Source: Bilabrum cf. latius (lineage: Eukaryota). Taken from it: a stretch of DNA of 64,000 nt. Made by a program: the position numbers and the translations under genes. Where the stretch lies: assembly GCA_965178125.1 (NCBI GenBank), contig OZ237760.1, forward strand, positions 682,001-746,000, given 5' to 3'. How positions within the stretch are numbered: the first letter of the stretch is position 1; every line of letters begins with the position of its first letter. Positions 1 to 64,000 of this stretch are shown here, piece after piece. The notes under the pieces were generated by a model, which saw only the letters and a list, made by a program, of their open reading frames with translations, was not told the DNA's origin and did not search any database.

Positions 1-2805
1 CGCAGCTGCCGGTCGAGTCCACGCAAGGAGACCCGGCTGCGCCCACGACGACGAGGAGGACGCCAAGCCAGCGCCGGCCCGCCCGTGCCCATGCATGTGG
101 TCCATGAGGCCGTGGCGCTGCTTGGGCGACGGCTGCGCCCTTGCGCCCCGCCTGCCCTTATCAAGCGAAGCCGCGGCCGACGGCGCTCCGTCGCTGCCAG
201 ATGCAACTGATCCAAAGGCTGGGGGATGGGAGTGCAGCTCACCGTTCAGCTCCCGGGAGAGCCCTTGAGGCTCCGGCGAGCCCCCGCCGCTCGCCATCAC
301 GGCCCCTCCTTGCCCCTCGCTACCCATCTCCAGGTCCTCCACGACGATCCAATCGGCCCCTTCTGGCACCTCGTCATCCAGAGTGGCCACAGGGGAGGAC
401 GCCAGCTCCAGCATGAGCCCACTCGATGCGGCGTGGAGAGTGTTGGGGCGCCGTGGTTCCGTGGCAGCGGCGCCGGTCCCGATGAGTGGGGGTCGGTGAC
501 CGGCGCGGTGGCCCGGAGTGTGGGTTCCGTGGTGGTGATCGTTGAAGTCCCCCGCGCCTGCCCTCTCCAGCAGCAGCTGTCTCGGCGAGAACGGGGGCAC
601 GCCTGCGATACGGGCGCAGAGGTCCAGCTGCTGCCACACCTGGGCTCCAAAGTGCTGCTAGCACAGCCTGCTGTCCGCACCGGGCCCGTTGTCCAGCCCC
701 TTGCTCCTCGGAGGCGACCTCAGTCCCAGCCCGCTGAGATGTCTTTGCTCCTCACGGTACTCTGTGAGGAGGGTCCCCATAGCCGTGCGGGCCGCTTGCA
801 CGCACTCAACCGCGGTCTGCTGCAGGTGCATTCGGTTCACCTCAGACATGCCCTTTCGCTTGAGACCCTGCTGCAGCGAGTACGCAGCTCGCACCGCCGA
901 GTCTTGCGCCACCCTGCTGGCCATGAGCACCTGTTTGTCCACCCTCTCGAGCACCCTGTCCTCTAGAGCCAGTCCTGCGACTGACAGCGGAGCGCCGACA
1001 CCGGTAGACGAGAATGCCTGCCCGCCCATGGGCAGCTGCAGTCGGATACTGCCGGTGCTCGACCCATTTGGTGCGCGATACTGCCCCCCTTTCGCGCTGG
1101 ACGAGGTGCTGGTTGGCAGGGAAGCAGCCGTGGAGGCAGTCGTAAGGCCTCCGGTGGTGACTGCATTGGCGCGACCCACGTTGATCCGCAGCGCTGGCAC
1201 TTTGGAACGACCTGCGCCCGAAGAAGCAGCAGCAGCAGCAGCAGCAGCGACGGCTGGGGGGCGGCCTCCTCTCCCCGACTTCCCGGATTTGCCAGTCTTC
1301 CCGGCCTTACCGACGACTGCCCCCCCCTTGCCCTTGCCCTTGACGGTGCTCCAAGCAGAGCCTCCCCTGCCTCCCTGCTTGCGCCTGCTGCCGATCCCGG
1401 CGCTGCTGCGGCCGCTCCTGCGGGCGGCCAACCCAGCCGCAGCCGGTGGCGCGCCTGCTCCTGTGCCGTTCCACACGCCCGTACTTGCCCTCCCAGCGCG
1501 AGTTGGCAGTGACGGGGCCGCGGGACCTGCCCCTGAAACCAGCATAACTCCTGCCCCCGCAGCCGCACTCGCACCGACCACTGTTGTCGCGCTGGCTGCA
1601 GCCCTCTACTCCGCCGATGCCGCCATGAGTTCGCCGATTTCAGGGACGTCGCCGTGCGCTGACCCCGCGCTGGCCGACCTGTGGTTGTACCCGGTTCCAT
1701 TCCTTGCGCCTCCACCGCCCCTACCTCCTCCTGACGGTGACAGCCGCAGCACGCCAGTACCCAGTGGCGGACCCCTGGTGAGCGGCCTGCCCTCCACCAT
1801 CTCGATCAGCTCGTCAGTGCCCGTGTCTACTTGCCCTCGGCCCCTGCATTCTGCCGCGCGCTTGTGCAGCTTCTGGATGTACTTTTGCGCGTGCGTGCGG
1901 ATCTGCACGACGGACCTGGTTGGTACCAGGCCCTAGATCTGCTTCCAGTCCTTCCCGTAGGTTCGCAGGCCCTCCACGAACGTATCGTGCTCCACATCAC
2001 CCCATCGCCCCGTGGCCGAGCCACCCCCGTGTGACGACGACGACGACGACGAGGAAGCGCCCGATTTCCCCCGGTGCCGCCCGCCCCCGCGGCCCCGTGA
2101 CCTTCCGCTGCCGCTGCGCCGACCCCCCGCATCCCCGGAACTTCCACCGCGACCGTCCATCCCTTCCCTTTCTTCCTCGTCGCCCTCGTCCTGCAGCAGG
2201 CTCGGGGGCACTCGAGTGGTGGCGCGCGAGGAGCGGCGGGGGGGCGCGCTGTGGCTGCCGGCTGGGTGTGACGAGTGTAATGGGCCGCTCTGCATGCCAC
2301 CGGGTGCAGTGGCACCAATGGGCGGGTGGGGGTGGCCAGCGGAACCGGCGCCGCGCGGCAGGGACAGGACGAGCTTGGGGGCGGCGCCTGGCTGGAGCGC
2401 ATGCGCTGGGACGGGAGGCACCTGCGACAGGCCGTGCCAGCTGGATGTAGTGCCGCCATTGCTACTCCTTGTGCTGGTGCTTGAGCTGCTGCTCGTGCTG
2501 GTTCCAGGCGTGGTAGCTGCTGGAGCGACCGAATGCACGTCTGGCTCGACAGGAGTGCTCAGATTCGAGGCGCTTCCTTTCGGGCTGGTTTTTCCGCTCG
2601 AATTTTCCGGTGAGAGTGTGCCAACCGAACCGGCCATTGTGTCGCTTTCAGCAATTGCTTTGCGCTAGTCGGCGGGTTTGCCGGAGCTCCCATGTTGCTA
2701 TCTGCCCTGCAGCACATGCTAGACTGGCTGAATCCGCCCGGCTGGCACGGACGGCATTGCATGGCCATTGTTTGGAATCATGCCAGTCCACTCCATATTG
2801 TCCAT
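1..2805 (-). CDS. Myb-related (SHAQKYF-class) transcription factor; 3' end runs off the window
   Basis: One frame joins ORFs 2719..2931, 1933..2637, 1606..1908 and 658..1581 through TAGs at 2719, 2698, 2666, 1933, 1606 and 658, and stays open to base 1. The Myb domain reads GRWGDVEHDTFVEGLRTYGKDWKQI[TAG]GLVPTRSVVQIRTHAQKYIQKL. ATG 2805 is preceded by a CGCAG acceptor-like site, so small upstream exons (e.g. 2963..3006) are possible. Confidence 0.88.
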
Positions 2806-20526: not shown

Positions 20527-20761
20527 TCACTCGTGGATCTTGCTCACGATCCCGGCCCCCACAGTGCGGCCCCCCTCCCGCACAGCGAACTTCAGGCCCT
20601 CCTGCATGGGCACGGGCATCTGCAGGGTCACCGTCAGGGTGGCGTCGTCACCGGGCATGACCAGCTCCACGTCGTCTCCGAGGGAGTCAATCTTGCCGGT
20701 GACGTCAGCGGTGCGGAAATACAGCTGGGGGGAGTACCCCTTGACGAATGGGGTGTGGCGG

Positions 20762-20792
<31 letters not shown>

Positions 20793-24189: not shown

Positions 24190-24446
24190 GAGTTTACGTG
24201 GCCGTGGAAATTGGTACTTGCAGAATCCTCCGTCGCGTGAGATTTCTGCGTTTAAGTATTGGGTTCTCCTGTTCTTAAGTGAATCGGTGGAGAATTGGGT
24301 CTGCGCAAGCGGCCTGCTCCTTGCCGTGCTGTCGGTGGCCTCGATCGCCAAGCCGGTATGAATGAGGCGTATATACCGTGCCGTTAGCCTTGATTTTAAA
24401 ACGATTCTCTCAAATCGCGCTCCAAACGCTCTACGGAAGGATTTAG

Positions 24447-27400
24447 ATGCCCTCGTGGTGGCGGCCATGCGCCGGGGTGTTGCGACCGCCGGCGATGCGA
24501 CCGGCGCTTGATCGCTCGGGCCTTGCGGACAATCACAAAGCGGATATGTGCCTTGAGCCAACATCAACAAGTTGGATCGAGTACTTGAATGAACAGACAG
24601 TTTTGGCGAAATGCGCAAGACCAAGAGTGCGAGTTGAACTCAGCTCTGTCGCGGTGGTCGGCAAGCGGGAGGCATTGCATATCAAGCCAGACGGACTGCT
24701 CGAGTACTTCGGTCGCCTGCTGTCTTGTGGAGCTTGGCACGAGCCCCCCACGGAATTTAGTGTGTTACATCCATGCTCACGTAAGGTAGCATCGCACCTA
24801 TCTGATTACACGGTCTCTTTGCCAAAGAGCCGATGCTCCTAGATTATTTTTCCCTGGCTCTCTGTGCAGTGCGGCTAAATCCAGGCACGATGACCTTAGT
24901 CGTTTCTAGCCCTGGGGGTGGATCTTCAACTCTATTAAAGATCATCTCTGGGCGCACCAAACCGCACCATGGCAAAGTCGCGTTCAATGGGCGCAGCTCC
25001 GATGAGCTTGGCTGCACGGACTATCGCAAAGTCGCCTCCTACGTGGACTAGGTCGACGTGCACGAGCCTTTGTTTTCTACAAGAGAGACATTCTAGGTGA
25101 TATATGCTTCTATTTCAGCTGATTCCTGAATAAATTCAATCTTGATGACTGAGTGGTCGTGGTACCTCGCCCGCCTTGCTACATTCGCAGTTTGTTGCCG
25201 GGGCTACGTACGGTAGAATAGAACATGCATCCCAATCATCAGATCCCAAATCATTGTTTGAGCCAGCAGTGCGTGCTGATGCTATGCTTAAGCTACTCCG
25301 GTTGGAATCCAGCGCCGACACGAACATCGGAAGCTCCACCACCCGAGGCATCAGCGGCGGCCAGATGCGGCGGGCTTCACTCGGGGAGGCGCTCCTAACC
25401 GAGCCTCGGGTGCTCTGCGGGGACGAAATTACCGCAGGGCTGGATGCTGCTGCTGCAGAAGAGGTGGTGCTCCGCCTCGGGGAGTACGCCAAGACCGCCG
25501 ACGCTACCGTGGTGCTCGCCTTAAAGCAGGCCACCCCGGGCATGTACGCGCTCTTCGACGACGTGGTGCTCCTGAGCGACGGGCACATAATCTACCACGG
25601 GCCCAGGGTGGAGCTCGAGGGAAACCTAGCGGCCAGGGGGTTCCCCCCTCCCCAGGACGGGGACTTCTGCGACTGGCTAGCTGCACTCGTCACAGACCCC
25701 ACCCTGGCCACACCTGCGAGCCACGCAGGGCCAATTACTACAGTGGAGACACTGTCTACGGGTCCTGATGGCTGGTACCGCAGCGAGGCCTGCAAGAAGC
25801 ACCTCAACCGGCGCTCGCCCACTAGGTCGGCACTGGGGCAGCAGCTGCTACCCGAGGGGCAAGACCCAAGCGCTGACTACGATGACCTCGATCTGTTCCT
25901 GCGAGCTAGTCCAGCCCTAGCCCTGCGCTTCGGCCGGAACGGTAGTTTGGATTGCTGTTCGAGGTTCAGCATGATGATGGAGCGGCAGGGCAAGCTGCTG
26001 TGGAGGCACCCGGTGCTGACCAGGGTCCGCTGGCTCGAGTCGATCGTGCTGGGGCTGCTGTATGGGGCGGTCTTCTTCCAGCCCGACGTGAACGAGTTTG
26101 CGCCCAGGCTTGGTGTGAGCATTCAAAGCAAATCGATGGTGCAGGCGTCTTGCGGTGCTTGCGCTCGACTGTGCCTCGTCACCCCGGTGTTCGCCTGCGT
26201 GTGCCCCAGCACACCCCCAACCCTTCACTCCAATGCATGCACCCTTTCACTGTGTCGCAGCTGGCCACCGTCTCACTGGTTCACGTAGCCTTTGATTTCG
26301 CCGTAAGTCCGATAAACTGACCTGCTCCGGCCGAACGTTGCGGAGGAGACCTCTCTCGGAATGCCGCCTCGCTCCATTCACTGCCGCCCCATCGCAGGAA
26401 GTGCATGCAGGTATGGACGGAAGGGCCGTTGCATACAAACTCTCCCGGTCTGGCATCTTCGATGACTTCACGTACATACTTGCGGTGTGCTTCGTGCACG
26501 TGCCAGTTGCCCTCTTCAACTCGCTTCTGCTGACCATGTGCGTGTACTTCTTGGCTGACATGAGCCTTGAGGTTTCGCGAATCGCCGTGTTCTGGATAGT
26601 TATGTTCAGCACGCAGCTGGCCATGTCTGGATGGTTTCGCGTTTTAACCTACGCGAGCCCGACCTTTGAGGTGGCGCACGCCCTCGGGGGCTCCCTCGTC
26701 GGCATCTTCCAGCTGGTGGCGGGATTCCTTGTGACCCGCACCAACATCCCCGTGTTCATGCGATGGCTGTACTACTTGAACCCGCTAAGCTGGGCCCTCC
26801 GCAGTCTGGCGCTGAACGAGTTCTTCGCTGCCAGGTACGATGGGCCTGTGGAGCTGCGAGGCAGCTTGGCAGGCAATGATACCGGTCTATTGAATTCCAG
26901 CACGTCTCCCCGAGGGAATCTCGGCAGTGTCCCACTTAAACGAGAAGCATACCTTGACGTATTCGACATCGAGCGCGATCCTCACCAAGCGTGGATGTGG
27001 GGCGCTGTGGCATACCTGCTGGGTACCTGGTTCCTGTTCGGGATCGTGCTGTCATACTTTGCGCTGGCCACCTGCAAGTACGATTCAAGGCCGGGGACGC
27101 AGCGGGTACATGACGAAGGGGCCCGGCAGCAGCTCCAAACGAAGCGATCTATTATGCTCAGGGGGTCTCCGGCTTCGCTGCAGTCCGTCCCACGGACTAG
27201 CAAGCGATCGACACGAGCAGTGGGCCCCATTGGCATTGCAAGCAAGGCCGAGGCTGGCGCGAATGGTGCTCAGCCTGAGGATGTCGAGTGTGGTGTCACG
27301 CCTATGACGGAATCCGCGTCCTCGGCTATTTCGGCGGAGCCGGATACCACAGAGCTTCGGGCAGCGGCTTCTGTTGCATGCCATGGCGACGTCCATGCCG

Positions 27401-29559
27401 ACCGTGTTACTTCGCCTCGCGGTCATTCATGCTAGGCTGGCTTGAGTGTGCAAGCGCAGTGCACCCCTGTTGAGCTGGCATTCGATGACATACGGTACAC
27501 GGTCACAGTGTCCACCGACAAAGACGGTTCTACCAACACGATGATGGAGGTAGACAGGTTTGCTGGCTTCGTTGCTAAGCGTACTAGAGCTGGGGTAACC
27601 CGCCCGAAACACCGCGGCCACCTCTCTCGCGCCCTTTCCACTGCCCAGTTCGCCGCACATCACCTGCCCATTCTTAGAGGTGTATCAGGAATCGCTCAGC
27701 CGGGGCGCCTTCTCTGCCTCATGGGTGCCTCGGGGGCTGGCAAGACCACTCTGCTGGACGTGCTGGCTGGCCGCAAGACGCAAGGCAAGGAAATTGGCGT
27801 GGTCCTGATCAACGGGCGGCCCGCCTCAAAGAAAGCGAGGGCCTCCCTGATAGCATATTGCGAGCAGACAGACCTGCATATTCCAACGCTAACGGTTGAA
27901 GAATCGCTGGATTTCTCTGCGAGACTACGGCTGGATGCAGAGACGGCTGAAGACGAGAGCGCCCGGAAGAATATCGTGGATGACGTGATGGATCTGCTTG
28001 AGCTAGGCACCATCAAAGGCCGGCCTGCTGGCTCTCTGTCTGTCGGCGAGGCCAAGCGCCTCACCATCGGCTGCGAGCTGGTGGCCAACCCGAGCCTGCT
28101 CTTCCTGGACGAGCCAACTACAGGGTTAGACTCTTTTTCAGCAGCGCAGGTGCTTCATGTGCTGCGAAACGTGGCACAGACAGGCCGCACCGTGGTGTGC
28201 ACTATCCACCAACCGAGCTACGACGTGTTCACGGCATTTGACGACCTTTTGCTGATGGCGAAGGGCGGGAGGCAGGTGTACTTTGGTCCGATCGGCGAGC
28301 ACTGCAGCGACTTGGTACGGCACATGGAATCGCACCCAACGGCGTCGCCGCGCCCAATCCGAGTGAACCCGGCGACATGGATGTTGCATGAGCTGGAAGC
28401 AGAGCGAGCTCGTATTGATGTGATTTTGGACGAGCAAGAGGATAGGAAGAGCTGCCCGGACACTGCGCTTCCCAGCGCAGCCGGCCAAAGTAATGCGCCA
28501 ACTGACAATCTGGTGCAGCTGCAGCGCACAACCAACCTGTTCATGGAGACGTTTCGCGACTCCAATGCGTACTAGCGTATGGCGCAGAGGCTCTCGTGCA
28601 TCAAGGCGGCCCGTGCGACCGCTGGCGGCAGCAAGGAAGCGCCACCGGCGGTCAAGGTCGGAGATACGACCAGGTTTCTTGCAGTCCTGGAGCGAACATT
28701 CACTGACAGCTACCGCGATCTCGCCTTCAATGGGTCGCGGTTTACAACCCTTCTTGTTATTGGGCTTATTTTTGGCCTACTTTTCTTTGGGCTCGATTTC
28801 AATGCGAGTCAGGGCGGCGTGCTGTCCATGGTTGGGGTGCTGCAGAGCATGGCGTCGTACAGCGGGATCTAGTCACTTGCGGCGCAGGTGGTGCTGCTGT
28901 ACAAGTACAGACCGATCTTCTACAGAGAGAGGGCACTTGGGATGTACGGCACCATGACCTACTACCTGACTATGTCGCTGAAGGAGATCGTGTACCTAGC
29001 TTGTTTGTGCGTGGTGTTCACGCCAATCGTGTACGCCTTCGTCGGTCTTCGCTTTGACTACATTACGGTGTTCCTTGAGACGCTAGCCAGCGTTTTTCTG
29101 GTGGGACTGCAGCTGTCCCTCATGTCACAGTTTGTCGCGGCGTCGTTCAGGCACTCCAGCACGGCAGAGGTTTTCGTTGGTGAGCTGCTGCTCCTGATGG
29201 CCATCTTCAACGGCGTGCTAACGTCCGGTGTGCAGAACTTCAAACCTGCCCTGCGTTGGATCGTCTACCTGAACCCACTGTTTCTCGTGAACGCCCCGCT
29301 GGCCTTGAACCAGGCCCACTGCTTCGAAGCAGGGCCTGAGGCCGGCGAGGAGGCTCGGCTGGAGGCTGGCTGCCCCACGGTGACGGTGGTGAAGGACGGC
29401 ATAGAGCTGGTTCAGACGGTGGAGGGCTACGTGGAGCAGCTCCTGGATGTAACGTATGCGGAGCGTTGGAAGTACTACGCCGGAATATTGGCGATCACGG
29501 CCGTGTTTCAGGTGCTAGGATGGGTGCTCGGGCACGTATTGGATTTTCAGAGGCGCTGA
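24447..29559 (+). CDS. Full-size ABCG/PDR-type transporter (NBD-TMD-NBD-TMD); introns 24781..24869, 25097..25190, 26115..26260, 26303..26397
   Basis: NBD1 has SSPGGGSST, SYVD[TAG]VDVH, ISGGQMRR and CGDEITAGLD. NBD2 has GASGAGKTT, AYCEQTDLH, LSVGEAKRLTIG, FLDEPTTGLD and CTIHQPS. Four GT-AG introns restore the frame. In-frame TAGs at 25049, 25094, 27433, 28573 and 28870. Ends at TGA. Confidence 0.92.
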
Positions 29560-29789
29560 TCTCTCGATCTAGAATCTAGATCTAGTCGGGCATTGCATCC
29601 ATGGTGCGCAGTAGTGCGCTGCGGGTATGGAGGCCGTGCTTGCACCATGACTCGTTCTGCTTCTCTGTCTGTCGCCACCAGCCACCAGCACAGCCTGCCT
29701 GTCGTGCAACTGCACCGCACGGTCGCTCGACCTACACTGTTTCAAATCCGGATAGACCTAGTCCAGTTTCAACACCAGATACGAGCACA

Positions 29790-37360: not shown

Positions 37361-37849
37361 TGCATCGTTGACATGCGCCTGAGTTAGTTGTCAAGCGGAA
37401 ACTCAACATCGCAGAACCGGTAGTGATACCTGGAAATCGCGAGCTTACTGAACAGGTAGCTAATGTCGGGATAAACTCACTAACGCAACAAGTTTTGCGG
37501 ATCAGAAGCCTATAAATATCCGGGCTACCTGCTTTCTGAGCTAACAGAGTGTGTGGGCGATGGAGTGCCTTTGGCCGGATTTGCAGACCAACTAGATGTC
37601 TCGAATGTGTCAGTAAGGACGCGGAGCTACTGAGACGTCCCAGCCATACACAGTGATGCAGAAGGCTTCGCGGCAGCCTTCCTGATCAACGGTCAGTGCG
37701 ACCCTAGGCGTGCTGCAACAGGTCCATGTGTCGGCGCCGCGCTCGTTTGGTCGCACAGTTCCGCTATCAGACAGAACCTTCGTGAACACCGCACGGCAGC
37801 AAGATCCATTTGTGGCCCCTGTGGCGCTCATGTAGGACTATGTATCAAT

Positions 37850-40800
37850 ATGCCTCGCTCTATCGTAAGACATTTAGTATTTATACAGCGAGTGGGCGAC
37901 CTTTGTCCATCTGTTCATTCCGTTTTGTCTGCCCTAGGCACCCATCTTAATCGCAGTGACGATTTGCTCAGACCTGTACCATTTGTTGACGCACCCGGCC
38001 CACTGCACGGTCAGCAAGAAGGTAGGACTGTGTTAGACTCTGCAGTCCGAATGGCTTGCGTCCTATCTACTGCTGCCTGTGACACGGCGGTGCAGGACAA
38101 TCGCGAGTTGTTGGCACCTGTGGTGTCGGCAGATTTCAAGGGCAGTCGTCTGTGGTATCCAACAGAACCGGTCCGGATACGTGCCAGTAATCGATCAGGA
38201 TCTGGCAGAATTCACAGATAGCTTCGATCTCGGCTGCAAGATGCTCGCGAAACTTGCAGAGCTGCTCTGCTTCGAGGCCAGCCAGGGCTACCCGGCGATC
38301 AAGCGGGCGAGAATCCGCTGCCAACCTAGCCAAGCATACCGCATCTAGGCAGACCCACCGATCGAGCGCGTCGCTCCCCACGCAAGGCTTCGCCGTGGGA
38401 GCGACTGCTCCGTGGTACTGCGGAAGCTGTGCAGAGCCGATACAAGCAGGCAGCGTGGGCCTCAGCCTCGGCCGCGCCGCCGTTGCACGGATCGAACAAA
38501 TCTACAGCAAACTCTCAGACCCATTCGGATCCCCCCGGTGGCCAGGCTCGACCAAGCACTGGGGCTCATAGCCCCATTCAAAATAGAATTATTCCAAATA
38601 GAATTGTTGGCAGCAAGAACAGAAATAGAACGGCTATGCTATTGCTAGGATCGTCTCACCTGGCCCGATGCACGGCCCCCAGCCGAGACGTGTTCGCGCA
38701 AGACGGGCCTCTCTCTCGCATGCGGGCTGTTGGGTGCAGCCTCCACGTTCTGCTGTTCGATTCGGAGGGGCCGTTTGAGGCCGATAGAGGGTAGTCTTCT
38801 AGCAGAGGGGTGGGTGGATTAAGGCCAGTGCTGGCTTCCCAGTCTTGGCTGGCAGACGCAGTTCTGGCCGTGGGGGGATCGCTTAGAGTCTTCCGTTGGG
38901 ATGGAACCACGCGCGTGCTGCGACACACGGGCTCCATCCCAAGACTGCCGAGCTCCGCAGAATTATTCCCATCAAGCCAAGGCGAGGACATGTTTACTGC
39001 AAGCGTATCAGCTGGGCCTTAGTTTGGATCTCATCCCCGATCTAGGCCAAGCATGGGGGGAGCGGCACGAACAATTTGCTCCAGTCCTGACGGCGAAGGT
39101 GCCGCGCTGGACGGACTGCTGACGGACTCTCTCTCTGCGGCTGGTGCAGCACAGAAAAGCAGCAGTGCATAGGCCGCCACAGGCCTCTTTATCCGTCACA
39201 TGCACGCCAGAAGCGCCTTCCTGAGCCCGAAGCACCACACCGTGGATGTGGACCTGCGTGGGCTGCACCGCGCTGCGCCTCGCTCCCAGAGGAACAAGGC
39301 CTGCCGAGGGCAGACGGCAGACCAGTCCGACTCGCCGGCACAATCAGGGCCGCAATCGGTTGCCGGGTCGGTCTCAGCGGAGAGGCGGCGGGTGAGGAGC
39401 GCAACCAGGCTGCGAGAAACCGTGTATCGCGTGCTTGGAGGCAAGCGGGCCACAGCCCCAGTCATCGTCCTGCGCATCGGAGTGGCCTCCCCGAGCGATC
39501 TTGGTAGCGGAGTGGGTTCTATGAGCTCAAGTTTGTCGTCGGGTGTGGCTGCAGCTGATACCAAGGTCGGTACGGAAGCAGCTGGACGTATCGGCGAGGC
39601 CGAGGCCGACCGGCGAGAACCGCACGTGACGTTGCATTGCAGGCCGCGACAATGGGCCGAGTGCATGTGGTATTGGCCGCTGCTGGCAACTCACAGTGAC
39701 CTCGTTCGCACTCGCAGCGAGCTTGGATTCATCCCATTGCGGTGCGACTAGGCAAGCTCAGGGGCTCATGATCGGCTGTGCGCCGAGGCAGCGTCGGATC
39801 AGGTGGACCTGGAACAGGCGGTTGGGGTGTTCGCGCGCACAAAGGCCGACTCGGGCCGCCGACATTGCGCATCAAAGGCATTCAGCTCCATCGCATACTG
39901 TGCTGCAGGCGGCACTGGCTCTCTCGCAGCAGGCATGGGCCCTTGCTTGTGCCACCTGAGGGCCATTGGGGACGGCTTTGTGCTTGTCGTGGTTTCCACG
40001 CCCGCCGTGCCGCAAGCTGCCTCCTCCGGCCCTGATCAGTCCCCCAGTCGGGCCTCGTTTCGCGCTTTGGACTCGCGGGGGCCGCATGCAATCCAGTGCT
40101 GGAAGGTAGTGGCAATGGTGATGAAGGTTGGGGAAGCGGTCCAGCTCCCCGTTGACACAGAGCAGGTGCATGAGCGGGCGGCATGGTTCGCACAACGTAC
40201 GAAGGCACTGGATGCACTCTCTGAACGCCGTACGTAGCTTGTTTCTAGGCGTGCTGACACCGAGGACCTGAGTCTGTCTGCTGAAAGCAAAGAGGATAAC
40301 CTTTCGGCTGACATGTCAGAGCGCAACAGCGCGGGCGGCGCTGAAGAATCCTACGTTGCCGCGGCTGCCCCAACGAGCCCAGTGTCTGGGGACTAGGAAG
40401 CGGCTGGGTCCCTGGCGGGCAGTGACAGCGGTGGCGGACTGCAGGCCTCAAGGGACCATCGCAACAGCGTCGGTTCTTTCACCAGCATGGGCACAAACGA
40501 CTCGAGGCCGGTCACGAGGGCCTCGCGGTCAGACACAGAGGAGCTAGATCCTATGGCGTTTGGCACGCCAGCCTTCGGACCACTGTCTTTCAAACGTGCC
40601 GCTGGTAGAGAAATCGCTACGAGCCACAAGAACCGCCGCGACAGCCGTCCGGCAAGACTGGCATCCTTAGGCCTCTCTCCCCCGCAGGGGCCCATCGACG
40701 TCCGTGGAGTGCTGGACGAAATGCCGCAGCTGTCACTCAAGCCTAGCGATAGTACCGGAGCGCTCAACTCCCTGGCAATCTCGTATGATCTGCATGGCGA

Positions 40801-43800
40801 AGGGCGAGGTATACGCCAGCAGGTCGCCATTAGTGGGGCGGCTCGCATAGCTCCTGCCAATGCGGCTGCAATAGCGCGGGCGGGCACTCGGCCGTCGAAA
40901 TCTCGATCACCTGCCGAGAGGCGGACCCAAGGTATCCACACCAGTCCTAGCGACAGCCAGCTTGCACTTGGGGGGCGGCAGGGCGGACAATCGTCTGCCC
41001 ACAGCCGTGCCAAATCTGGAGATTTTGAGCGTGGGATTTTGAGCAGTCGCGGGTAGCGACGTCCAATAGTTAGTTCTGGCACCAGGGCAAACCGTGCTGA
41101 CAGCAAGCCGCACAGCAGCAGAGTTTCATTCCCGGACGCACGCGCAGAAATGGGCTATGTTATCAAGCGGATTGGTGGTGCAACGGTTGGCATGCCACCG
41201 CGTGTTGATCTTGCAGGTGCGGCGGCCCTGGTGGTTGGTCCGGGGTCCTAGCGTAGACGAGCAGCCTCTCGGATCGCTGCGTTTATTCGCAAGCGCATGA
41301 ACCACCGAAGTGCAGCAAGGTTCAGAGCCGCAACTGCATCTCTGAGAGATAGCGATGCAGTGCTATCCCAGCAGCAGCTGCTGTCGGCTTCATCGCAGCC
41401 TATCGATCCGCCGCGACCCGATGCACAAGGCGCCGTGCGTGTCACGACTACGTAGAGCGGGGATTTCATGCAGACACTGTCCAAAGGGACCTTCCAGCAA
41501 ATTGTTAGGGGCATTGTAGCGACTGGGTAGTGCCCCCAGTGGTGGGAGTGCAAGACCGTGGATGTGGCCTGGAGTGGGACTGGCAAGCCCCTACCAGGCA
41601 GCTCCCAACAGCGCGGTCCGGTGATCGCGATGGGCGGGATCAGCAGGGTGGCGGTTGCCTTGCGCAACCTAGAGTGCGTTTTGCGGCGGGCTACTTGGAG
41701 GGCAGTACGGCATGGAGCAGTCCACTCGCTGCAGGTGAGGCCGACGGATGGGCAGCGCGCAGTGCGGGTTGCTCTGCACATGGCAGAGGTGCATGGTACA
41801 GCGGGTGCGTCTCAAGCACCTGTTGTTGTATTGATGCTTCCTGCGGTACGATAGAACGGAGCTGGGTCCTCCCTACCGATGTCTGCGAGCAGTGGTTCGC
41901 ATGCTAGGCTGATGGCGGTGTTTCCGTCTAGCAGTGGCGGCACTAGCATGCATAGCCTGCTTGGAGCCGTCCGCACGCTGATGGCAAACATCACGAAGCG
42001 CATCAAGGCGGAGTCAGACAGCCTGCTTGATGCACTAGATGCAGACAAATCCCTCCACACGCAGTCTCTACGCACGGCGGAAGAAGGGGGGTCTGGTGAG
42101 GCAGGTCCGATCTCAAGCCCGAGGCTGCGCCTCAGGTTTCTGTGGAACCATGCCGCAAGGCTGCCTGCTGCTGACGGACATTCCGACGGGCCGCTGGAGT
42201 TCCCTGTCACTGACTTCACCGGCACCAGGACGGCCGCGTACTCCGTTCGGGTGCTGTCAGCCCACGCCGTGCTAGCATGCTTCAAGGAAACCGTCGCAGG
42301 GCGCCTGCGTGACCGGTCCCACCAAGGCGATAACGGGCTGTCGTGTCTTGGGATTGAATTTGATACCGGTGGCGAGGCTAGGTTCACGGCGCGGTTTGTG
42401 GAAGAGCTGGGAGTGTCGCCGTTTGGCGGAGCCGTGGTTCTCCTGCAGGAGGTGACGGGCACGTTCGCGGACCCCTCGATGCTGGCTTCATCGTCTTCGG
42501 ATTCGACCGGCGTGATGGAGTGGGGCGTGTCCTCCCTGTAGCCATTCGTGGGCCAGAGCGGGTCCGTGTCGGTTGAGTTTCGCCTCGTCCTCGGGTAGCT
42601 CCAGTCTGTGGTATCTCCCATCCTCAATAAGCTGGCCTCAAAGAAGTAGCTGGCAGCAGCAATGGATTCTGCCGTCGCTCGATGGTTGGCCGCAGACTAG
42701 TCCGGCTGGAGGCCACACCTTTCCTGCTCCGTGCTCCATGGGTTATCAACCACCGTGCTCGCCGCCTAGTCGCCCAGGACAGACGGTGCCAGCAGGGTAT
42801 CAGGACGTCGCCTCTCCATGATGCCGGGGACACTGGCGCCACAGAGCAGACTGCCTGGGTACGTCTCGACGGTCCCCCGGTCTACGCCCGATACCGGCAG
42901 ACACTGTCGATTCGTGAGCGTCGGATACCTCGCCGATACGAGCGTGCCGGTTGTCGCGCCTTCCCGGACAGCTGCAGCAAGTGTAGCAGCGGTAGACGGT
43001 GGTGCCGTGGCGGAACTGCCGCGGGCGTCCAGTCCGCTTTGGTCTCGGTTTCTATTCGTGCCGGAAGTACGCGGTTAGGCCACTCGGCTGGGACTGCGGC
43101 TAGGTGCCGGCGGGGGTGCTGCAATGGACTGGCATCGCACAACGATGCAGGGTGCCGCAATGGCGCTTTCCAAGTGGTGCGAGTTGTCGTGGAAGAGCCA
43201 TCGGCTGCCCCCCGCTGCCATGAGCCAGCTGTCCCGCAGCGCACATCAGCTGCGAGGCATATGCGTGGCCTCAACCCAACAAGGCATCGAGTTCGACCTG
43301 GAAGAAGCGATCCCGCAAGTAGTCTGGGCGGAGCAATCGGTGAATTTGCTATTAATTGACAGCAGGGTAGCTCGATCAACTTATGCGCACAGTGAAGCAA
43401 AGCCTGGAGATGCAGCGCGCCCAGATATCGCGTCTGGCCATGGGACCGAGGATAGCAGCGATGCAGCCCGATACTCTGGTCTGGAGCTTCCCGCCCTGGC
43501 TTCCACCAACGGTGCTTTCGGGAGAGTTCTCAACCGGACCCTGTGCGCTGAGCTAGCCCTGAGCACGTCAGCCTTCGCCCTGCAACCAGGCGATGTCATA
43601 GGCAGGGCACAGTCCGGGGACGCGTCCTACGACCGAGGCACTGAGAGTCGCTCACGGGAGCACGAGCACGAGCACGAGCACGAGCACAAGAACGAGCACA
43701 AGAACGAGCCAGTCGATAATCAGTCAGGGGAAATCGGAAATATCGAGCTTGCAGACCTGAAGAATGCGGTGTTTCTCATCGCAGGCGAACAACAGTGCTT

Positions 43801-46800
43801 CGTGCTAGCGATCGAATGGCTACGTGCCAGCGGCGGGGACCGTGGCCACAGGACAACTGCATCGGAGCTTCTACCGCTGCGTGCACGGCTAGGTCTGCTG
43901 GACGCGAGCGGCAACCTGAGCAAGCAGCACTTTGCCCTGGATGGCTTGAAAGACCTCCGTTCTGCACTGCTTGCTCTGTCCACCACGGCGCTGCTTGCCG
44001 CCACCGAGCGCTGGTGCGTGCTGGCAGAACACGAGGCCGCATCCTCGACGCAAGCGGCAAGCAGCCAGGCTCCCCACCTGCGGCTGTGCCCAAGCCCCTT
44101 CCCGCACTTTAGCGACGTGCTCCACAACGCTCTCAAGAGGTCGGACTGGATGGAGGTGCGCGTGGATTTCTCTCCTGTGCTTACAGTGCTTGCGATGGCC
44201 GCGGAGTCGGACGACGAGGAACATGCAACCATGCTGCTGCAGGCGGTTTGCTCTGGCATAGAACGAACTCACAGGCTCTGCTGCACGCGGTTCGTTGCCC
44301 TGCCAGTGCAAGCCGGGCTCATGGGTGCCCAGCAGCAGCACCTCCAGGGCAATTCCACGTCAACGAGCTCGAGCAAGCAGTCAGCACTCCCTGGTTTCGC
44401 GCCTTCGATGGAGTCCTCGGCGAGTAGAGCTCCCTCCAGCAATGCTGCCTTCCACCCGCACCACGAGTACGGTAATGTGTACCACTCGATTCAGCAGAAA
44501 GCTGTCGTGTACACGGATGCATCGCGGGGGCAGGTGCAAGGGTACAGGTGGCCCATCGTGGGCTCTACGCCGTCTCAACTGATGGTGCCTGTGCGCCACG
44601 AGAAATCGCCGCCCGCCTCCCTGTCGGGCAGCCAGCGAATGCGCAGTGCATCATCAGCAGTGGAAACAGACGTACCGCCAGCGCATTTGCACGTCCACCG
44701 GGGGAACCCGCCAGAAGCGTTCCATTCGGTTGACTCGAAACGGAAGATTGACCGCTTTCCGGTGGCAGCATTCGCCAATACTATCTCTGCGATGCTGTCT
44801 GATGGTGGCAACTTGCCTCTGCAGCATGTTGTCCATTTACATGGCCAGCTGCCGTCAACCAGAGGGCCAGGTCGGAGTGCCAGCGCATTGGGTGGCACAG
44901 ACGGCACAGCGCAGAAGGAGCACAGCAGCGCAGCAAGCCCCGTTGCCAGACCCCGCCCCAGGGCTAGCGCCCTCGCTGGCCCAGACCTTAGCAGCGCAGC
45001 GCGAGAGGAGCGGTCTAGCCATTTGGCGCGGGAGGCATCCCAGGGGGAAACTAAGACGCAGCAGAGCGACGCAACAGAGCCATCTAGCGGGTCAAGCAGC
45101 AGCCTTGATGGACACTCGCAGCCAGCGATGGAGTGGGTCCAGCGAGATCGGCTTGAGGCTCGCGCTCTCAGCACGATGCACGACCTTTTCTTGTCATCCT
45201 TCGGGAGAGAGGCGACGGATGTCGAGTTTGATATTGGCAGCCGGACAAAGGGCGGGCATGCGTCCGCTTGGGCCTCCCACCAAAATAATTCGATGGAACC
45301 CCAGTAGCAAGCGATGGGTGGAATTGACATCGGTAGGTCGCACCCGAGTGTGTCTACGCTGTCGTGGGAACTGCAGCTCCCGTTCCGTGAGTTTGGTAAC
45401 ACGTCTCGTTCTGCGACGGCCACGGAGATGGACTCGTCTGGCGAAGGCACCGACAATTCGGAGGAGCAAAACGAAGATAATGAGCCCCACCGAGCGGGAC
45501 GGAAGTCCTCGGCCCCGCCGTTGCTGAACGCCCGCGGGCGCGATACTGCACCACTGCCATCGTAGAGTCTTGCAGATCGACTGATTGTCCTTAGCGAGCG
45601 CCTGAGCGATCACCAAGACCAGAACGCACATCCCTCGCAACCGCGCGCGGATTTGCACGCGATATCTCGGCTGCAGACGCTAATCGAAGGAGTCCGGCCG
45701 TGCCTGGACTGCCCAGGCCTGCGCAACCGCATCATGCGCCATGCCTCGGAGAGCGCCACTCTGCAGCCAGATGCCATGTCTCCGAGCCGAGCATGCCTGT
45801 TTGCCCGCACTGCCATTGCGGTTCCTGCGGCAATCACCAGAGAGTACCTGCACCGCACTGCAAGGTCATCCACCTCGTCTGCAACGGACGGCGATGCGGC
45901 ACAAGATGACCACGATGGACTCACGCCGACTGAGAGCGTTTGGAGCAGAGTGTCAGCCCGCGCGCGCCAGGCTCTTCTTGGTTTCTTCCAGCGGTTGCGC
46001 GCGTCGGCAGCGCACGCAGAACTGGACGGGCTGATCGCGACGGGGCTGCAGGCGAGGCAGGCGGGGTCCAAGCGGGCTCTGCTGCTTTCCTGCTGCCTGC
46101 CGAGGCGAATGCAAACCGCCAAGGTTTCTATCGTGCTCCCCAACGCGACAAGTTCGGAACTAGTGGGAGCGGTGCAACGCGGCAGGACCAAGACGGCGTT
46201 CGCGCTTCACCGTGAGCTGGAGGTGCTTGCAATCGAGTAGCTCGAGGCCATCGCATAGGTTGCTCGAGGTGTTGCTTCAGTGGAGCACGCAGATATGCTG
46301 CAGGGGGGAATTTCGGATCCGATCAACGCGGACGAGGCGGCGTTTGGAGAGATGCAGGCACTGCTCAGGCCAATGGATGATGGTCCTATCCACGTCCTCG
46401 GTACGATTGGCCGCGGGCACCTCTAGAGCACTGCAGCAACAAATGAGAAAGCTGTAGAGAAGGTGAACAGAGCTGCTGCTGCACTACACCCGCCTTGGTT
46501 TTGCAGTATGCAGTTGGATGGCATCCTAGAGGGTGACCTAAATTCAACCCCGGCGATGGCAGGCAGCAGCGACGCGGTCTCCACCATGCTCCTGGTTCCG
46601 AGCACACTGCCTACCGCTTCCCTGGAGACAGAGCGCGATACCAACGCGTGGCAGCGCATGGAACTCACCGTAAAGTTCCTGACGCTGCCGGGCGTGCAGC
46701 ACGGCACAGCAGCGACCATGCTTATCGAGGGCTTGCGGGGATCCCTCTAGAGATGCACGGACAGGGCTGCGGCCCACCTCGCGCTTGCAAGAATGAGAAG

Positions 46801-49800
46801 CACAAAGACTCTGCCTCGTTTCCTGTACAACTAGCACCGAACGCAAGAGGGCGATGATGCGAGCCTGCCAATGACCGCAACCAGCGATGGAGGCACCAAG
46901 CCCGAGCAGCAGCAGCAGCATCCGCAGTAGGACTTCCCAGTGACACTGAGTGCGATCGACCGACTGTTCAACGGCATCAAGAGAAGCATGCCCGCTGTTC
47001 AGCTAGCACCGTGGGTCAGTGCAGACGATGCTCTCACTTCGGTCAGCCAGGCGCTGAGGGATTTCAAGCTGTCGTCTCATCGTCTTGACCTGGATGTTGC
47101 CGACTAGGCACGGTCCCGATTTTCGTCTACTGATGCCACAGCAGCCCATGACAACCCGCCTGCAGCGGTACAATGCGTTTCAGCAATCTGCATTCAGCCA
47201 GCTGATGAGTCGAAGCGCGGGCTTACTTTGCAGTAGCAGCTATCAAATTTCGATCAGTTTGTGCTCGTGTTGTACTGGCACGAGGCTGGGCCAGACCCCG
47301 CTGGTGGAAATGGCCGCGCGCCTGGCTGCATCACGGGCGTATCATTCAGCTCCAGGCACCCTCCGTCTAGCGTCCTCTCCCAGGTGCACTCTAGGGTGGC
47401 GAGCTGGATGCAGATTGACGCGACTGTTGCTCGTCTGCAACACCCTCCATCCGTGCTGCGGCAACACTGGGACGTGTCAACCGAGGGGGCTGCTGCCTCA
47501 TCGCCGTGGTACGACACCCGCTTGTTCGTCCAGAGCAGCTCGACATCGATGAAGCACGCTGCTATTGCTGGCAAGGAGCCCCTGCATCCTCATGCAGCCA
47601 GCGTTGAAGTGTATCCGCGCAGCACCGTGCCGTCCATCCTGCGCGCCCGAGAATCGGCTGGCACCGCTGACTTGGAATCGATTTGCAGTGAGATGCGCAG
47701 AGAGCTTGATCATCTCGTGACATGCTGGCAGGATGTGCGAGCAGTTGGAAGCAGTGATGCGGTCTTATTGCCCAGAGCTGAGCTTCCAGCAGGCCACACT
47801 CGCGTGTCTCAATCCGCCAGCATCTGTGGTGTGTGTCACCTGAATGTGTCTGATGGCGCAGCAGCTGGCAGCTCAACTGGCCCAAGGCCCGCGCCAGCTG
47901 CCCAACACCCCCACCGAAACGTGACTGATTTGCTAGCTGGATCAAGCAGCGGGGGCGTGCACACGGGGTCTGGCATGATTTCATCTGTCGGCAGTGCCAG
48001 TACTGAAGCCCGCTCGCGGGCCACGCGTGAAATCCTGCGCACATCACGAGCTGACTTGGCCGGCATAGCGGTGGTTCGCATCAGCGTGTCTGTGGTTGAA
48101 GTGCACGAGCAATCAACGGGCGACAGGCGGAGCCATGCCGCTTCACATTCGAAAAGGAGAATCGCTACGTCTGCCAGCTTTCGCGGGGCACGCCCAGCGA
48201 CCACCAAGCATAGATTGCCAGGGAAGCGTGGGCTGCTGCAGCTGCAGCCCACACGCGTACTCCATATCAAGGGAACTGCCAGCAAGGAGCCGTGGCTAAG
48301 AGGAATAGCCCGCATGGGCGCTCCCACGGCAAGCATCCTTCCATCAAGTGAGGAAGAATCCGCAAAGTGCCTGCGGCCAGTCGTCAGCTGTATGTAGCGA
48401 GCCAGCACCACAGTAGCCCTCGTGCTCACGACGGAGATCTGGGTATCCCCCGCGAGACAGCTCTCTGCAGCCCGCAAGCAGCTCTCGCGCCAGCTGCTGC
48501 GGATCGCGGCTGCGTCGGCTTCTGACGGTCTTCGGACATAGGTGTAGCGTGCTGCAGTGCGAGAAGTGCAGTCCACACCAGCAGAGCTGTTGCACTGCAT
48601 GCGGCTTCCATCGGCCGCGACGGTAGCTGCCCGCCTGGAGATGCCACGGCAGGGGCGACTATCTACCCGCGCATGTCGATTTGCGGCTCTGTCTATCGTC
48701 AAGTGGGCGGCCGCAGCCGGTCTAGTGCGAACGAAAACTGTAACAGACTCACGGTCACAGTCACGGGATGGCTAGCAGGAATCAGCTGCCAGTGGGGAGC
48801 ATTCGGTATCTAGTGAGGGCGATCCCATTGCACAGCCCTCCCCGAGCGAACACCCTATTCGCATCGATGTGCTCCTGTCCGGCAGATTGTCCGATCCGAA
48901 GAGGTTTGTGTTTCAATCCACTTCGCCCATCGTGCCCATACCTACCTTCGATCCAAGCAGTGCCACCGATCGAGGGCTAGGTGTGGGTACAGGGCACCAA
49001 GGCTCAGCACCTGACGCACCAAAGCAGACCGCTTCCAGGCTGCTGGCACACTGCCGCGACTGGGAGCGATTTACCCGGGCCTCTGGTCTGTTCCCCTAGG
49101 AGCACGCGATGCTTACCACGACCGAGACGCAGGACGGCACCATGGTCAGGGTAAGGCTCGGCGGCAGTGGCAGTGGCAGTGGCAGTGGCAGTGGCAGTGG
49201 TGTTGATGAAACGCAGGGATTGGTGTCAGGGTTGCGCCATGATGGTCTGGAAGCTTGGCTGGTGGTACTGCTGAGACCTGCGAGCACCGACGTGTTCGTC
49301 CTCGGCACGACCCCGAGGATGGCGGAGCGGCTGATCGGCGAGGTGTGGGGCACTTTGACGTTCCTGTCCGCCGCGGAGCAGCTGCTCCGGCCTCGCGTGG
49401 CCGCAATGAAGGCAGGCAAGCCGATGCCGCTGCATGTACCGGACCTGATAGTGCTGCGTAGGGCGGGAAGCGGCGAGGCGCAGCTGCAGGGAGCATCGTG
49501 CGAGTACGCGACTGCAACAGACATCGACACTTTCCGGGCCCTGATTACACATCGAGTGCGTGGCATGGGTGCTGGGGACGCGGTCCAGCAGTGGCTGCCT
49601 CCAGCTTGCTTGGACCCGGCCGGCCTCGATCACCTCTCGAGTCCGAGTCCAAGGGGCCTTCCGCTGCTGCCTCTCGTGTGCTCAGGGGCTGCAGTCGGGT
49701 TTCGTCTTGGAGCTGTGCTGGCCACGGGCGGCGGCGCATCGCTGCCGAGACCATCCAATACTAGCCATGCGGTGCGGTTTACACTGCTGGACGCATGCAT

Positions 49801-52800
49801 GATCACAGCGTTTTCGGCTCCGAGGCTGCCGCACGCTAGCGTGGCGTCAATCTTGGTCCCAGCCGATGGCACCGAAGGCTGCGATGGTGCATCCAACGTC
49901 AATGCCACGGGGCTTGGACTGCCATTCCTAAACGCAAGGCTCTTCGGCGGCGGCCGCCTGATCGCGGCAGTGACCCGTGATGGTGTTCGTTGGCTGGGCG
50001 ATTGCATGCGCAAAGCACTGCACACGCTTGACTCTAGCAACCATACGAGGTATGGCAGATCCGCAGCGTCCAGCAGCAAGCCTGGCTCCGGCTCTGCAGT
50101 CAGCGGAGACCTCAATCGTGCCCCGTCAAGGACGTAGGCTCCCCGTACACGAAGCGGCGAGGTGCCCTATGCCCCTGGGTTCGGTATGAACCGCAGGGGC
50201 CACGAAGACGACCACCACCTGCGAGCGGCTGCGTCCGACCGCGCGCTGTCCTTCTCCTCCCACGGGACAGGAAGCACCGCCCGGGATTCTCTGCAGCTCG
50301 ACGCTGCGGGGACCGTGATGGACGCGAGGGGCTCCGACGCATCCAAGCGGCAGCAACGTCAGCTGCCTAGCCCAGGTTCGGGTCAGCCTGGCCCCGGGAC
50401 TGGTCCCAGAGATCCGCAAGCACGACGGCCCAGCTCCTCGAGCAATGTGCTGGCCCAGCAGCCGCAGCAGCCCGGGCAGCACCAGAGGCGTCATAGCAGG
50501 GCAGACACGGATACTGGCAGTAAACACTCCAGGAGGCCTTCGGAGCTATCACGGCCGGCCATCCGGCGCAGTGGTGGGCCGGGCGGAGGTGCAGGCGGAG
50601 GTGGCAGCAGCAGCAGTCGCCCTGTGCTAAAGAGCTCAAAGTCGCTGCGCCTGTCTCGCAAACCAGGCGCCATGGCCAGGCGTCACCTTGCCCATTTGGC
50701 CATGCAGGGCGCAGGAGGGCCTGACCCCAGGGGCAGTGTCATGCCCCCATCCGTGCAGCCCATGCAACCACCGGTGCTGAGCACTATCGCACAGAACCCA
50801 ACCGCGCAGCAAACTGGCAGTAGCACGCCATCTGTCAGGTCTGAGGTCCCCGATGCCCATACCGCTGGCGTTGCTGGTGAAGGTGCTGCGCAGGACGCTA
50901 CCGGCGCGGCAATGCCTGGCCTCCTCTCCGTTGAGAGGGCCCCAACAGGCCAGCCGCACCGGGGACCTCTGGCGAAGCGCGCTGCCAGCCCTCGCTCGGT
51001 GGACAGCTCGACGGTCGCAGCAGCAGCCAAGGACGGCGGCATGCCCGAGCAGAAGGCTGCTTCAAGCCGCTCTCTTCTGGTCGATGCCGGCGGGCTGCAG
51101 GCAGACAGCGGCGCTCTGGAGCTGTGTGGCATGGCTGCTGCTGTCGGCGCCACCCTGTCGGCAAGGTGCAACCCCGTGGTGCTCGCTGCCGTGTGCACCG
51201 CCGTGGATTCGCAGGTATTTGCCAGGACGGCGCCGGGGCCCGACCCGCTGCAGCTGGCTCGGTCGGCCCTGGATCTTGTGTCTGCCCAGCAGGGGGGCTG
51301 TGCCTGCCTTGGAGTGGTGGGCAAGGAAGCGTGCAAGTACCTGCTGCAGCTCACCGGCTCCGTGCTGCCGTCCAATGGGACGGGGTCCTGGCTGACTGAA
51401 CCCCTGCCGGGTCCCAGTGCCCATGCCCAGCGCAGATCCGCTCTGGGATCCCGAGTGCGTGCGGCCGCATCAAGAGAGCTTGGATCCCTTGGTAGGTTGG
51501 TTGGATTCTCGGCTGGGGCCAGAGACGTGCTGGCCAACCCGCCGAGCACGCGCGCGATCCTGTCGAACGCCGCAAGGCGCATGGCCAGCGCGGGCGCGGG
51601 CGCGTCCGACTCGAGAACTCCCGACACAAGCCCGGCCAAGGCACCTGCCGCCCCCGGACCGCCGAGGTCCGGTGCGCTCGTCACACCGCAACAGGGGGTA
51701 CCCGGTGGCTTTGGTCATTTCAGGGCGGGAGAGGAAATCCTGGCCAAGACGCGCTTGCTGGACTTCAGGCAGCAGAGCCAGGCCGAAGACCGCGTGATGA
51801 GGACGATTGGGTACGAGGGCACGCTGGGTGGGGCCGTGGCGCGTGGTACTGAGTCGCTGCGAGCGGTGGCTGGGGTCGGAACGGGCGCCGTCAGCCCGTT
51901 CTCCGACAGCCCCTCTACACACGGCACTCCTCCCGCGGCCTATCTGCGGGCCCTCATGCCCGGATTTGGACCCATGGCCACGGTACAGGACCGGCACAGG
52001 GAAGAGGCCCTGGCGAGTGCGATCCTGCGGCAGAGGCAGCACCAGCTGCTGCAGGGACACCTCAGGGCCGTCGACAACAGGTCGCACTCGCCGCCCCGAA
52101 GTGGGGGTGGGGCGAGCGGCGTGCTCGGGGAGAGGGCCCGGTCCGTGTCGGTGGCATCTACGCAGAGCGGGGCTGCTCGGGGCGGCAGACCAGAGCACCG
52201 CACCTCGGCCGAGCGGGCCCGGAGCGGCATCAGCGAGATGTACGGCAGGCAGCACATCCACAGGTGCGGCTTTGAAGTGCCGCTCGTGGCCGGGCTCTCA
52301 GTGGCCGGTGCCTGTGCCGCTGTGCTGAGCACGCTTCTCGCCAGCATCCGCGCTGGGACGGGCGAGTGGCCCGTGAGAGCGTGCCACTTCCATACGGAAG
52401 ACGCGGGATCGAGCCCCGCCCCGAGCCCCGCCGGCATGAGCGCTCCATCTCCCGGGCCGCGGCGGCGCGATGTGGCCTGGTTTTCTCTTCTGCACGCAGC
52501 GGCCGGGACCGTGTCTAGGACCAGGGGCACCCTCGGGCTGCAGCGGCACCAGGCGCGGGCGATGGCAGAGAGGAGAGCAAAGGAGCGAGCAAGGGAAGGT
52601 GCGGGGATCGGCGGCAAGGGGCCTCCATCAGCAAGCAGGTCGGGGCAGGCTGGTACCACTGACCCCGCCGCCGCTTAGGCCCGTGACAAGCGACCTGTTA
52701 CGACCCGTGCCCCCTCGCCGAAGCGGGGCTCCTCTTCGACCAGGCTGCCAATTTGCATCTGTGTGACCTTTTGCAGGGTCACCAGCACGGCCCCAGTCAA

Positions 52801-55800: not shown

Positions 55801-56059
55801 CTCTGGTGGCACGGCAGTAGGGGGGAAAGGTCTAGGCGAAGATTCAAGGGATGGAATAGGTGGTGGCGCGCAAGAAGCCCCCCAAGACGTTGCGAGGGCA
55901 TAGTTCGAGCAGGGCCTCGCCCTAGCGGTGCCAGGGTGGAACGGTGAGGGCGCTTGCAAGGAGCTGCTGCTGGACGAGGTGAGCAAGTCGCACTAGGCGC
56001 TGCTTGCTGCGATTGAGAGGGAGCGAGAGGCAGAGCAGGCTAGACGTGAGGAGCTGTGA
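37850..56059 (+). CDS. Giant uncharacterised protein, 6069 aa, single uninterrupted frame under TAG=Gln
   Basis: All of ORFs 37850, 38429, 38810, 39200, 39803, 40487, 41558, 41879, 42818, 43124, 45314, 45653, 46463, 47261, 48557, 48869, 49109, 50162, 52763, 53213 and 55340 share a frame. The gaps, read by hand, contain only TAG (about 42 in total). The first TGA is at 56057-56059. Confidence 0.82.
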
Positions 56060-63800: not shown

Positions 63801-64000
63801 GCTGCACCCACTCGCCCTAGCACCAAGCCAACACGGGCACCATTCCAACATATCCAACCCCAATCCCATATACAAATACACAATCATATCCGCGACCAGA
63901 CCATCCAGCTATCCATCCGGGACTGCGGCAAGGCCACACCCGGCGGGCATGGTCGCAAGCTTAGCGCAGTCGGCTGAAGTCGGTAGATCGCGACTGTCGG
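57806..64000 (-). CDS. Multi-exon ankyrin-repeat protein, one repeat per exon; 5' part beyond the window
   Basis: Phase-0 exons flanked by CAG| and |GTGAG at 63645..63547, 63044..62946, 62375..62286, 61875..61777, 61204..61106, 60521..60432, 59855..59757, 59204..59106 and 58553..58455. The terminal exon 58366..57806 ends in TGA. Each exon is 99 or 90 nt, e.g. GQRTPLHVAAESGHADVVGALVAAGADVNAEDN. Confidence 0.85.
58955..64000. repeat. Tandem array of ~8 exon+intron cassettes, period ~510-675 bp
   Basis: Recurrent blocks (CAAGCGCACCCACCACGTCGGC, CCCAAGACACAAGCGCTCCTCGACCAC, CAGAGCATCGGCGCCGCGCAATCCAC). Exon-to-exon spacings are 651, 675, 674, 671, 509, 660 and 601 bp. Confidence 0.95.

Follow-up and report, generated by a model that had tools for sequence, protein, structure and literature searches.

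The window, i.e., the whole stretch of 64,000 nucleotides analysed, consists of intron-poor eukaryotic nuclear DNA with a GC content of 0.57–0.69 (overall about 0.6). Its plus strand carries a full-size ABCG/PDR transporter gene of five exons and 1562 codons, which contains five in-frame TAG codons (at 25049, 25094, 27433, 28573, and 28870) and no internal TGA or TAA. The gene is composed of the following elements, listed together with the codons discussed below:

24447..24780, plus strand: exon 1, from the ORF and splice model; the ATG at 24447 is a provisional start
24781..24869, plus strand: intron 1, 89 nt, GTAAGG..CAG
24870..25096, plus strand: exon 2, NBD1 from the Walker A motif to just beyond the Q-loop, ending in TAG/GT; Pfam ABC_tran, E 1.4e-9
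24923..24925, plus strand: TCT (Ser) where the NBD1 Walker A has K in 117/118 homologs
25049..25051, plus strand: in-frame TAG aligned to the Q-loop column of NBD1; Q in 118/120 homologs
25094..25096, plus strand: in-frame TAG, last codon of exon 2; column E 74, D 15, Q 14 of 120
25097..25190, plus strand: intron 2, 94 nt, GTGATA..CAG
25191..26114, plus strand: exon 3, NBD1 signature ISGGQ, Walker B GDEITAGLD, and start of TMD1
26261..26302, plus strand: exon 4, 42 nt
26398..29556, plus strand: exon 5, remaining TMD1, canonical NBD2, and TMD2; TAG at 27433, 28573, and 28870
27433, plus strand: TAG in a linker; gap in 118/120 homologs
27865..27867, plus strand: CAG on the NBD2 Q-loop (AYCEQTDLH); column Q in 120/120
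28573, plus strand: TAG; column R 27, Q 24, E 16, A 16 of 118
28870, plus strand: TAG; column I 45, V 28, L 15, S 7, Q 5 of 120
29557–29559, plus strand: TGA, stop codon of the gene

All four introns of the model are of the GT..AG type, with lengths of 89, 94, 146, and 95 nt. The other two frames across the span of the gene hold 12 + 3 and 36 + 8 TGA + TAA codons (15 and 44 in total), so the open frame is not a product of chance. Pfam matches, including ABC2_membrane (8.1e-47) and ABC_tran (1.6e-22) in exon 5, placed two ABC_tran and two ABC2_membrane domains in one polypeptide in the order NBD-TMD-NBD-TMD, and the model aligned end to end with the best 120 PDR homologs. The best named relatives belonged to Phytophthora, plants, and Salpingoeca (E from 1e-212 to 1e-111), with a top identity to database relatives of 56% across about a third of the query. 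The window protein has the (NBD-TMD)x2 order and a canonical NBD2 in common with the full-size ABCG/PDR proteins of plants and oomycetes, and its NBD2 motifs GASGAGKTT, EQTDLH, LDEPTTGLD, and TIHQPS all lie on columns conserved at 95–100%. When metagenomes were scanned with NBD2, the 10 loci obtained were all at ≤52% identity, so that no close relative was at hand for a codon-by-codon comparison, and the comparison of the NBD1 exon with longer proteins gave one weak match (E 3.6) among 25 candidates. Logan contigs from two runs of one sample showed no differences to the window across 24400–25372, and the TAG codons are therefore not an assembly slip; since this sample may be the window's own source, the match does not amount to independent confirmation. 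Sequencing run X5 was without coverage of 24400–25269, and the contigs compared yielded no evidence of transcripts. Additionally, the same runs contained several diverged contigs, more than 10% different in the compared parts, which matched parts of the ABCG gene (24400–29600), and the genome thus has ABCG paralogs.

The exact in-frame reading at 25030–25100 is SYVD[TAG]VDVHEPLFSTRETF[TAG], followed by GTGATA. The initial annotation had placed the first of these TAG codons on the Q-loop glutamine of NBD1, and the alignment bore this out. A MAFFT alignment of the model with the best 120 full-size PDR homologs showed Q in 118, A in 1, and E in 1 at the position of TAG 25049, and by BLASTP Q was found in 116/119; the flanking columns were conserved as Y (102), V (97), D (115), and H (120 of 120). 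Among the 120 columns with ≥95% conservation, only 3 are Gln columns, one of which is that of TAG 25049, and the window protein kept the consensus residue at 107 of the 119 other columns of this class. The CAG at 27865, cited in the same annotation as the counterpart in NBD2, was likewise confirmed on an invariant Gln column.

The Walker A motif of NBD1 reads SSPGGGSSTLL (24905–24937, plus strand), with Ser for the invariant Lys and Ser for the first Gly; plant and oomycete PDR proteins have GxPGxGKS/T where the window protein has SSPGGGSS. The NBD1 signature and Walker B motifs are intact, and NBD2 is wholly canonical. ATP site 1 thus looks degenerate, as in fungal PDRs, although the closest matches are not fungal. 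The best solved structures for the NBD1 segment were those of Candida Cdr1 (9iuk, 9s2c) and yeast Pdr5 (7p03), all of which have Cys for the Walker A Lys and Glu at the NBD1 Q-loop, with Gln at the Q-loop of NBD2. Since fungal PDRs are also without this Lys, the Ser in the window protein is no bar to membership in the family. Pdr5 lacks the Walker B Glu. The window protein shares a non-Lys NBD1 Walker A and a canonical NBD2 with Pdr5 and Cdr1 (7p03, 9iuk, 9s2c); in contrast to them, it has Ser and not Cys, keeps the Walker B D-E, and has TAG as its Q-loop codon, so that the fungal combination of Cys in Walker A with Glu at the Q-loop was not found. The warning in the initial annotation that fungal NBD1 Q-loops can be degenerate is relevant here, the NBD1 of the window also being without the Walker A Lys. 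The deviant NBD1, together with the fungal Glu, weakens the argument from the Q-loop taken alone: conservation of Gln at this site is less sure than 118/120 would indicate, and Glu had to be excluded by other means. The claim that the comparison of the two Q-loops points to Gln consequently stands as regards the column itself and is weaker than it was stated as regards its force.

The second TAG of this segment had been interpreted as an exon end equivalent to the common CAG|GT junction. Judged by frame and homology, TAG/GT at 25094–25097 is a true exon end joined to 25191, with F in the next column in 116/120 homologs. The other exon ends of the gene read CAC/GT, GGT/GT, and GCC/GT, and for this reason the junction carries no information on the amino acid.

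The TAG codons of the transporter gene are part of a pattern that extends over the whole window. Translated by the standard code, no ORF is longer than 1051 aa; when TAG is read through, the ORF scan of the window yields ORFs of 6141, 2699, 1723, 1249, and 1087 aa. The longest is as follows:

37634..56059, plus strand: ORF of 6141 codons, open only with TAG read; 42 in-frame TAG; ends in TGA

In-frame TAG amounts to 95 in 17,570 codons and is spread across 10 of 12 ORFs, which were delimited with TAA counted as a stop. TGA is the terminator in 12/12 delimited genes, TAG in 0/12, and TAA in 0/12. When TAA was also read as sense, four of the five longest ORFs were unchanged and the fifth gained only 34 codons; the long ORFs therefore have no TAA inside them. 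If TAA and TAG were equivalent, the usage of CAA and CAG (169/547) would predict about 29 TAA alongside the 95 TAG, and none was seen, which indicates that the code change touches TAG only. Counted per frame over the whole window, TAA is scarce (47–67), with 130–159 TAG and 163–299 TGA. TAG is a sense codon window-wide.

The ORFs of 6141 codons and of 2699 codons (3777–11876, plus strand) gave no Pfam domain at E up to 1 and are rich in low-complexity runs, the latter including a long Gly-Ala run encoded by (GA)n. No domain beneath a further TAG was found in the Pfam search at E up to 1 of these two ORFs, the PKD C-terminus, and orf669, and there are no more conserved TAG sites in the window than those considered here. 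Apart from the transporter gene, one TAG falls on an alignable position, in an ORF that runs off the start of the window and has a Pfam Myb_DNA-binding match at 1e-10:

1933..1935, minus strand: TAG in a SHAQKYF-type Myb domain; column A 98, S 23, T 8, Q 8, E 5 of 150

Over the five alignable TAG columns, the summed log-likelihood (lnL) was highest for Q (-9.99), followed by A (-14.01), E (-16.75), S (-18.19), and L (-21.55). When the Q-loop column was left out, the other four gave A -9.54, Q -9.93, and E -12.15 and thus no distinction between Q and A. The support that Gln receives from the alignments therefore comes from the Q-loop, and the other TAG sites are compatible with Gln. An assignment of TAG to Ala, Ser, or Leu, by way of a tRNA whose synthetase ignores the anticodon, has to be considered on these grounds. 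Ala leads once the Q-loop is set aside and is the predominant residue of the Myb column. The column at 28870 holds I, V, or L in 88/120 homologs, and a paralogous contig seemingly reads ATGCTG for ATCTAG of the window at 28867–28872 (deduced from two indel rows), which would, it seems, put Leu at this site. UAG = Leu and UAG = Ser are also reported, in a rhizarian and in Scotinosphaera, respectively (PMC11687900). Against such an assignment, the Q-loop column has A in 1/120, S in 0/120, and L in 0/120, the total lnL of all three residues (A -14.0, S -18.2, L -21.6) lies below that of Q, and none of them is enriched around TAG (z 0.4–0.8). We regard these residues as improbable.

Evidence that does not depend on alignable columns was obtained from residue composition. 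The proteins of the window are rich in compositionally biased stretches, and a residue therefore tends to sit among its own kind. Compared with 2000 sets of random within-protein positions, Q was the only residue enriched around the 92–93 TAG sites tested, with z of 1.98, 3.30, and 3.74 at radius 5, 10, and 20, all other residues remaining at |z| < 1.3. The observed value was reached by 62, 5, and 1 of the 2000 permutations, respectively, and the Q fraction around TAG was 0.061, 0.066, and 0.064, with 0.045–0.046 expected. As a control, all codons were treated in the same way, each subsampled to 93 sites. The codon's own residue was the top-enriched one for 23/60 codons at radius 10 and 23/59 at radius 20; among those reaching z ≥ 3, it was on top in 13/23 and 10/14, respectively, and the calibration of the test is thus moderate. 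Besides TAG, the only codons with Q-enriched surroundings at z ≥ 3 were CAA and CAG, plus the His codon CAT at radius 10. Q adjoins TAG at 11/87 sites (12.6%), near the 13.6% found for CAA. Two results point away from Gln. At radius 2–3, Q clustering at TAG sites was below that of Q codons (p 0.025 and 0.017), for which pure CAG runs may be the cause. In a plain neighbour likelihood over ±3 residues, the top ranks went to A, G, and S, and Q came 13th of 20, tied with I; this measure mainly mirrors overall composition and does not discriminate.

On the Q-loop site alone, glutamate is a serious rival, as the window NBD1 is without the Walker A Lys and the Q-loop carries E in those fungal PDR structures whose Walker A has another residue for this Lys, so that TAG could be Glu there as in the deviant NBD1 of Pdr5 and Cdr1. 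E is also the most frequent residue at the column of TAG 25094 (74/120), and UAG = Glu is known in a ciliate (PMC11687900). However, a Q-loop Glu, which the initial annotation had named as telling against Gln if carried by close orthologs, occurs in only 1/120 homologs in addition to the fungal Pdr5 and Cdr1, and the window protein keeps the Walker B D-E and does not show the full fungal pattern. The lnL for E, at -16.75, compares with -9.99 for Q; E is not enriched in the surroundings of TAG (z 0.6–0.8); and E adjoins TAG at 3/87 sites in contrast to 14.6% for Glu codons (p 0.0007). Glutamate is therefore very improbable as the meaning of TAG, and the Q-loop TAG would, on this evidence from outside the Q-loop, be Gln and not the fungal Glu.

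Even less credible is a standard code in which the TAG of the DNA is edited in the mRNA to a sense codon such as CAG, since all 95 in-frame TAG in 10/12 ORFs would need editing and TAG is the terminator in 0/12 genes; we know of no editing system of such kind. The reading of TAG as a true stop in a pseudogene or through sequencing error, which the deviant Walker A of NBD1 and the paralogs in the same runs might suggest, is already contradicted by the absence of TGA, TAA, or frameshifts in 1562 codons (other frames, 15 and 44 TGA + TAA), by the 6141-codon ORF that is likewise open with its 42 TAG, and by a second assembly of reads that is identical across 24400–25372, and its probability is negligible.

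Glutamine is accordingly the best-supported meaning of TAG, with a probability that we estimate at about 80% from comparative and compositional evidence. The proposal in the initial annotation that TAG encodes Gln is hence supported by the Q-loop column, by the CAG of NBD2, and by the composition test across the window, in which Q alone was enriched. With UAG a sense codon and most probably Gln, TAG 25049 would thus be the NBD1 Q-loop Gln of an intact, spliced transporter. Under the mechanism that we propose, UAG would be read by a tRNA-Gln with the anticodon CUA, and a release factor would be devoid of UAG recognition, the genes of both lying outside the window; UGA is the terminator at every gene end in the window, and the coding sequence is free of UAA. 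A tRNA scan and an Rfam scan of the 64-kb window gave no match. The Q-loop site offers a ready target peptide, VASYVDxVDVHEPLFSTR, for a mass spectrometry test of the code.

Information on the lineage was gathered from a gene for a mitochondrial-type elongation factor:

20527–21822, minus strand: mitochondrial-type EF-Tu; no TAG

The best named eukaryotic matches of this protein were Cafeteria (75%) and oomycetes (69–72%), with nothing more than 75% identical in the protein collection. In a tree of 33 sequences picked from the EF-Tu matches, it formed a long-branch sister to the clade containing Cafeteria, with a support of 94/94, a value under the tool's star threshold. Judged from this gene, the organism probably belongs to the stramenopiles, near the bicosoecids.

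The code in which UAG alone is changed to Gln corresponds to NCBI table 15. UAG-only reassignment to Gln is reported among ciliates for Protocruzia tuzeti and some phyllopharyngeans, and among fornicates for Iotanema spirale (PMC11687900). The same paper reports reassignment of both UAA and UAG (UAR) to Gln for many ciliates, Ulvophyceae, Hexamita, Streblomastix, and Amoeboaphelidium. The window resembles the UAG-only systems in having TAG as a sense codon whose best reading is Gln, no TAA used as sense, and TGA as the stop. In contrast to these organisms, the DNA of the window is GC-rich and intron-poor, its mitochondrial EF-Tu groups with Cafeteria, the organism is neither a ciliate nor a fornicate, and TAA serves as terminator in 0/12 genes. 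The UAR = Gln codes (NCBI table 6 type) assign the same amino acid, presumably by the same route through a mutated tRNA-Gln, and differ from the window in their use of TAA, of which the window has none in frame against an expectation of about 29.

No report of nuclear UAG reassignment in stramenopiles was found in the literature searched, which was represented by titles and the starts of abstracts. The change seen here is of a known kind, probably in a lineage with no earlier report. More specifically, the window could come from a stramenopile-related protist with a code undescribed for its group, in which UAG means Gln, UGA is the sole stop, UAA is avoided, and the change arose independently, a combination that we put forward tentatively and give somewhat less than an even chance. 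Nuclear code changes are rare, and those of UAG without UAA are rarer still, with reports so far from a handful of lineages (PMC11687900). A non-ciliate genome that is GC-rich and intron-poor, has UAG as sense, and shows TGA as its one observed stop would represent a further independent origin and would bear on the uncoupling of UAG from UAA. For annotation, the standard code would truncate most of the long genes of this genome, the 6141-codon ORF alone having 42 TAG.

The end of the window is occupied by a tandem array (58953–64000, up to the window end) of at least seven units of about 660 bp that are 80–90% alike. Each unit contains a minus-strand exon of 99 nt (87 nt in two units) that corresponds to exactly one ankyrin repeat with the pattern G.RTPLH..A..GHADVVGALVAAGA.VNA.D, then GTGAGT; the codon that ends the exon at this splice site is AAT, TGG, or TAG. 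TRF called no array on the window, the period of the units being above 500. An exchange between TAG and CAG was sought in the copies of the repeat, among which this one codon alone varies in such a way (AAT/TGG/TAG), and it is uninformative. Finally, a stretch of 63 nt with 90% identity occurs at 31678–31740 (plus strand) and 58154–58216 (minus strand) and encodes the motif RP.ELAKRLRLG.LAGG. It is common to the C-terminus of a 669-codon LRR-like ORF and to a minus-strand ORF at 57809–58408, which suggests a dispersed domain family.
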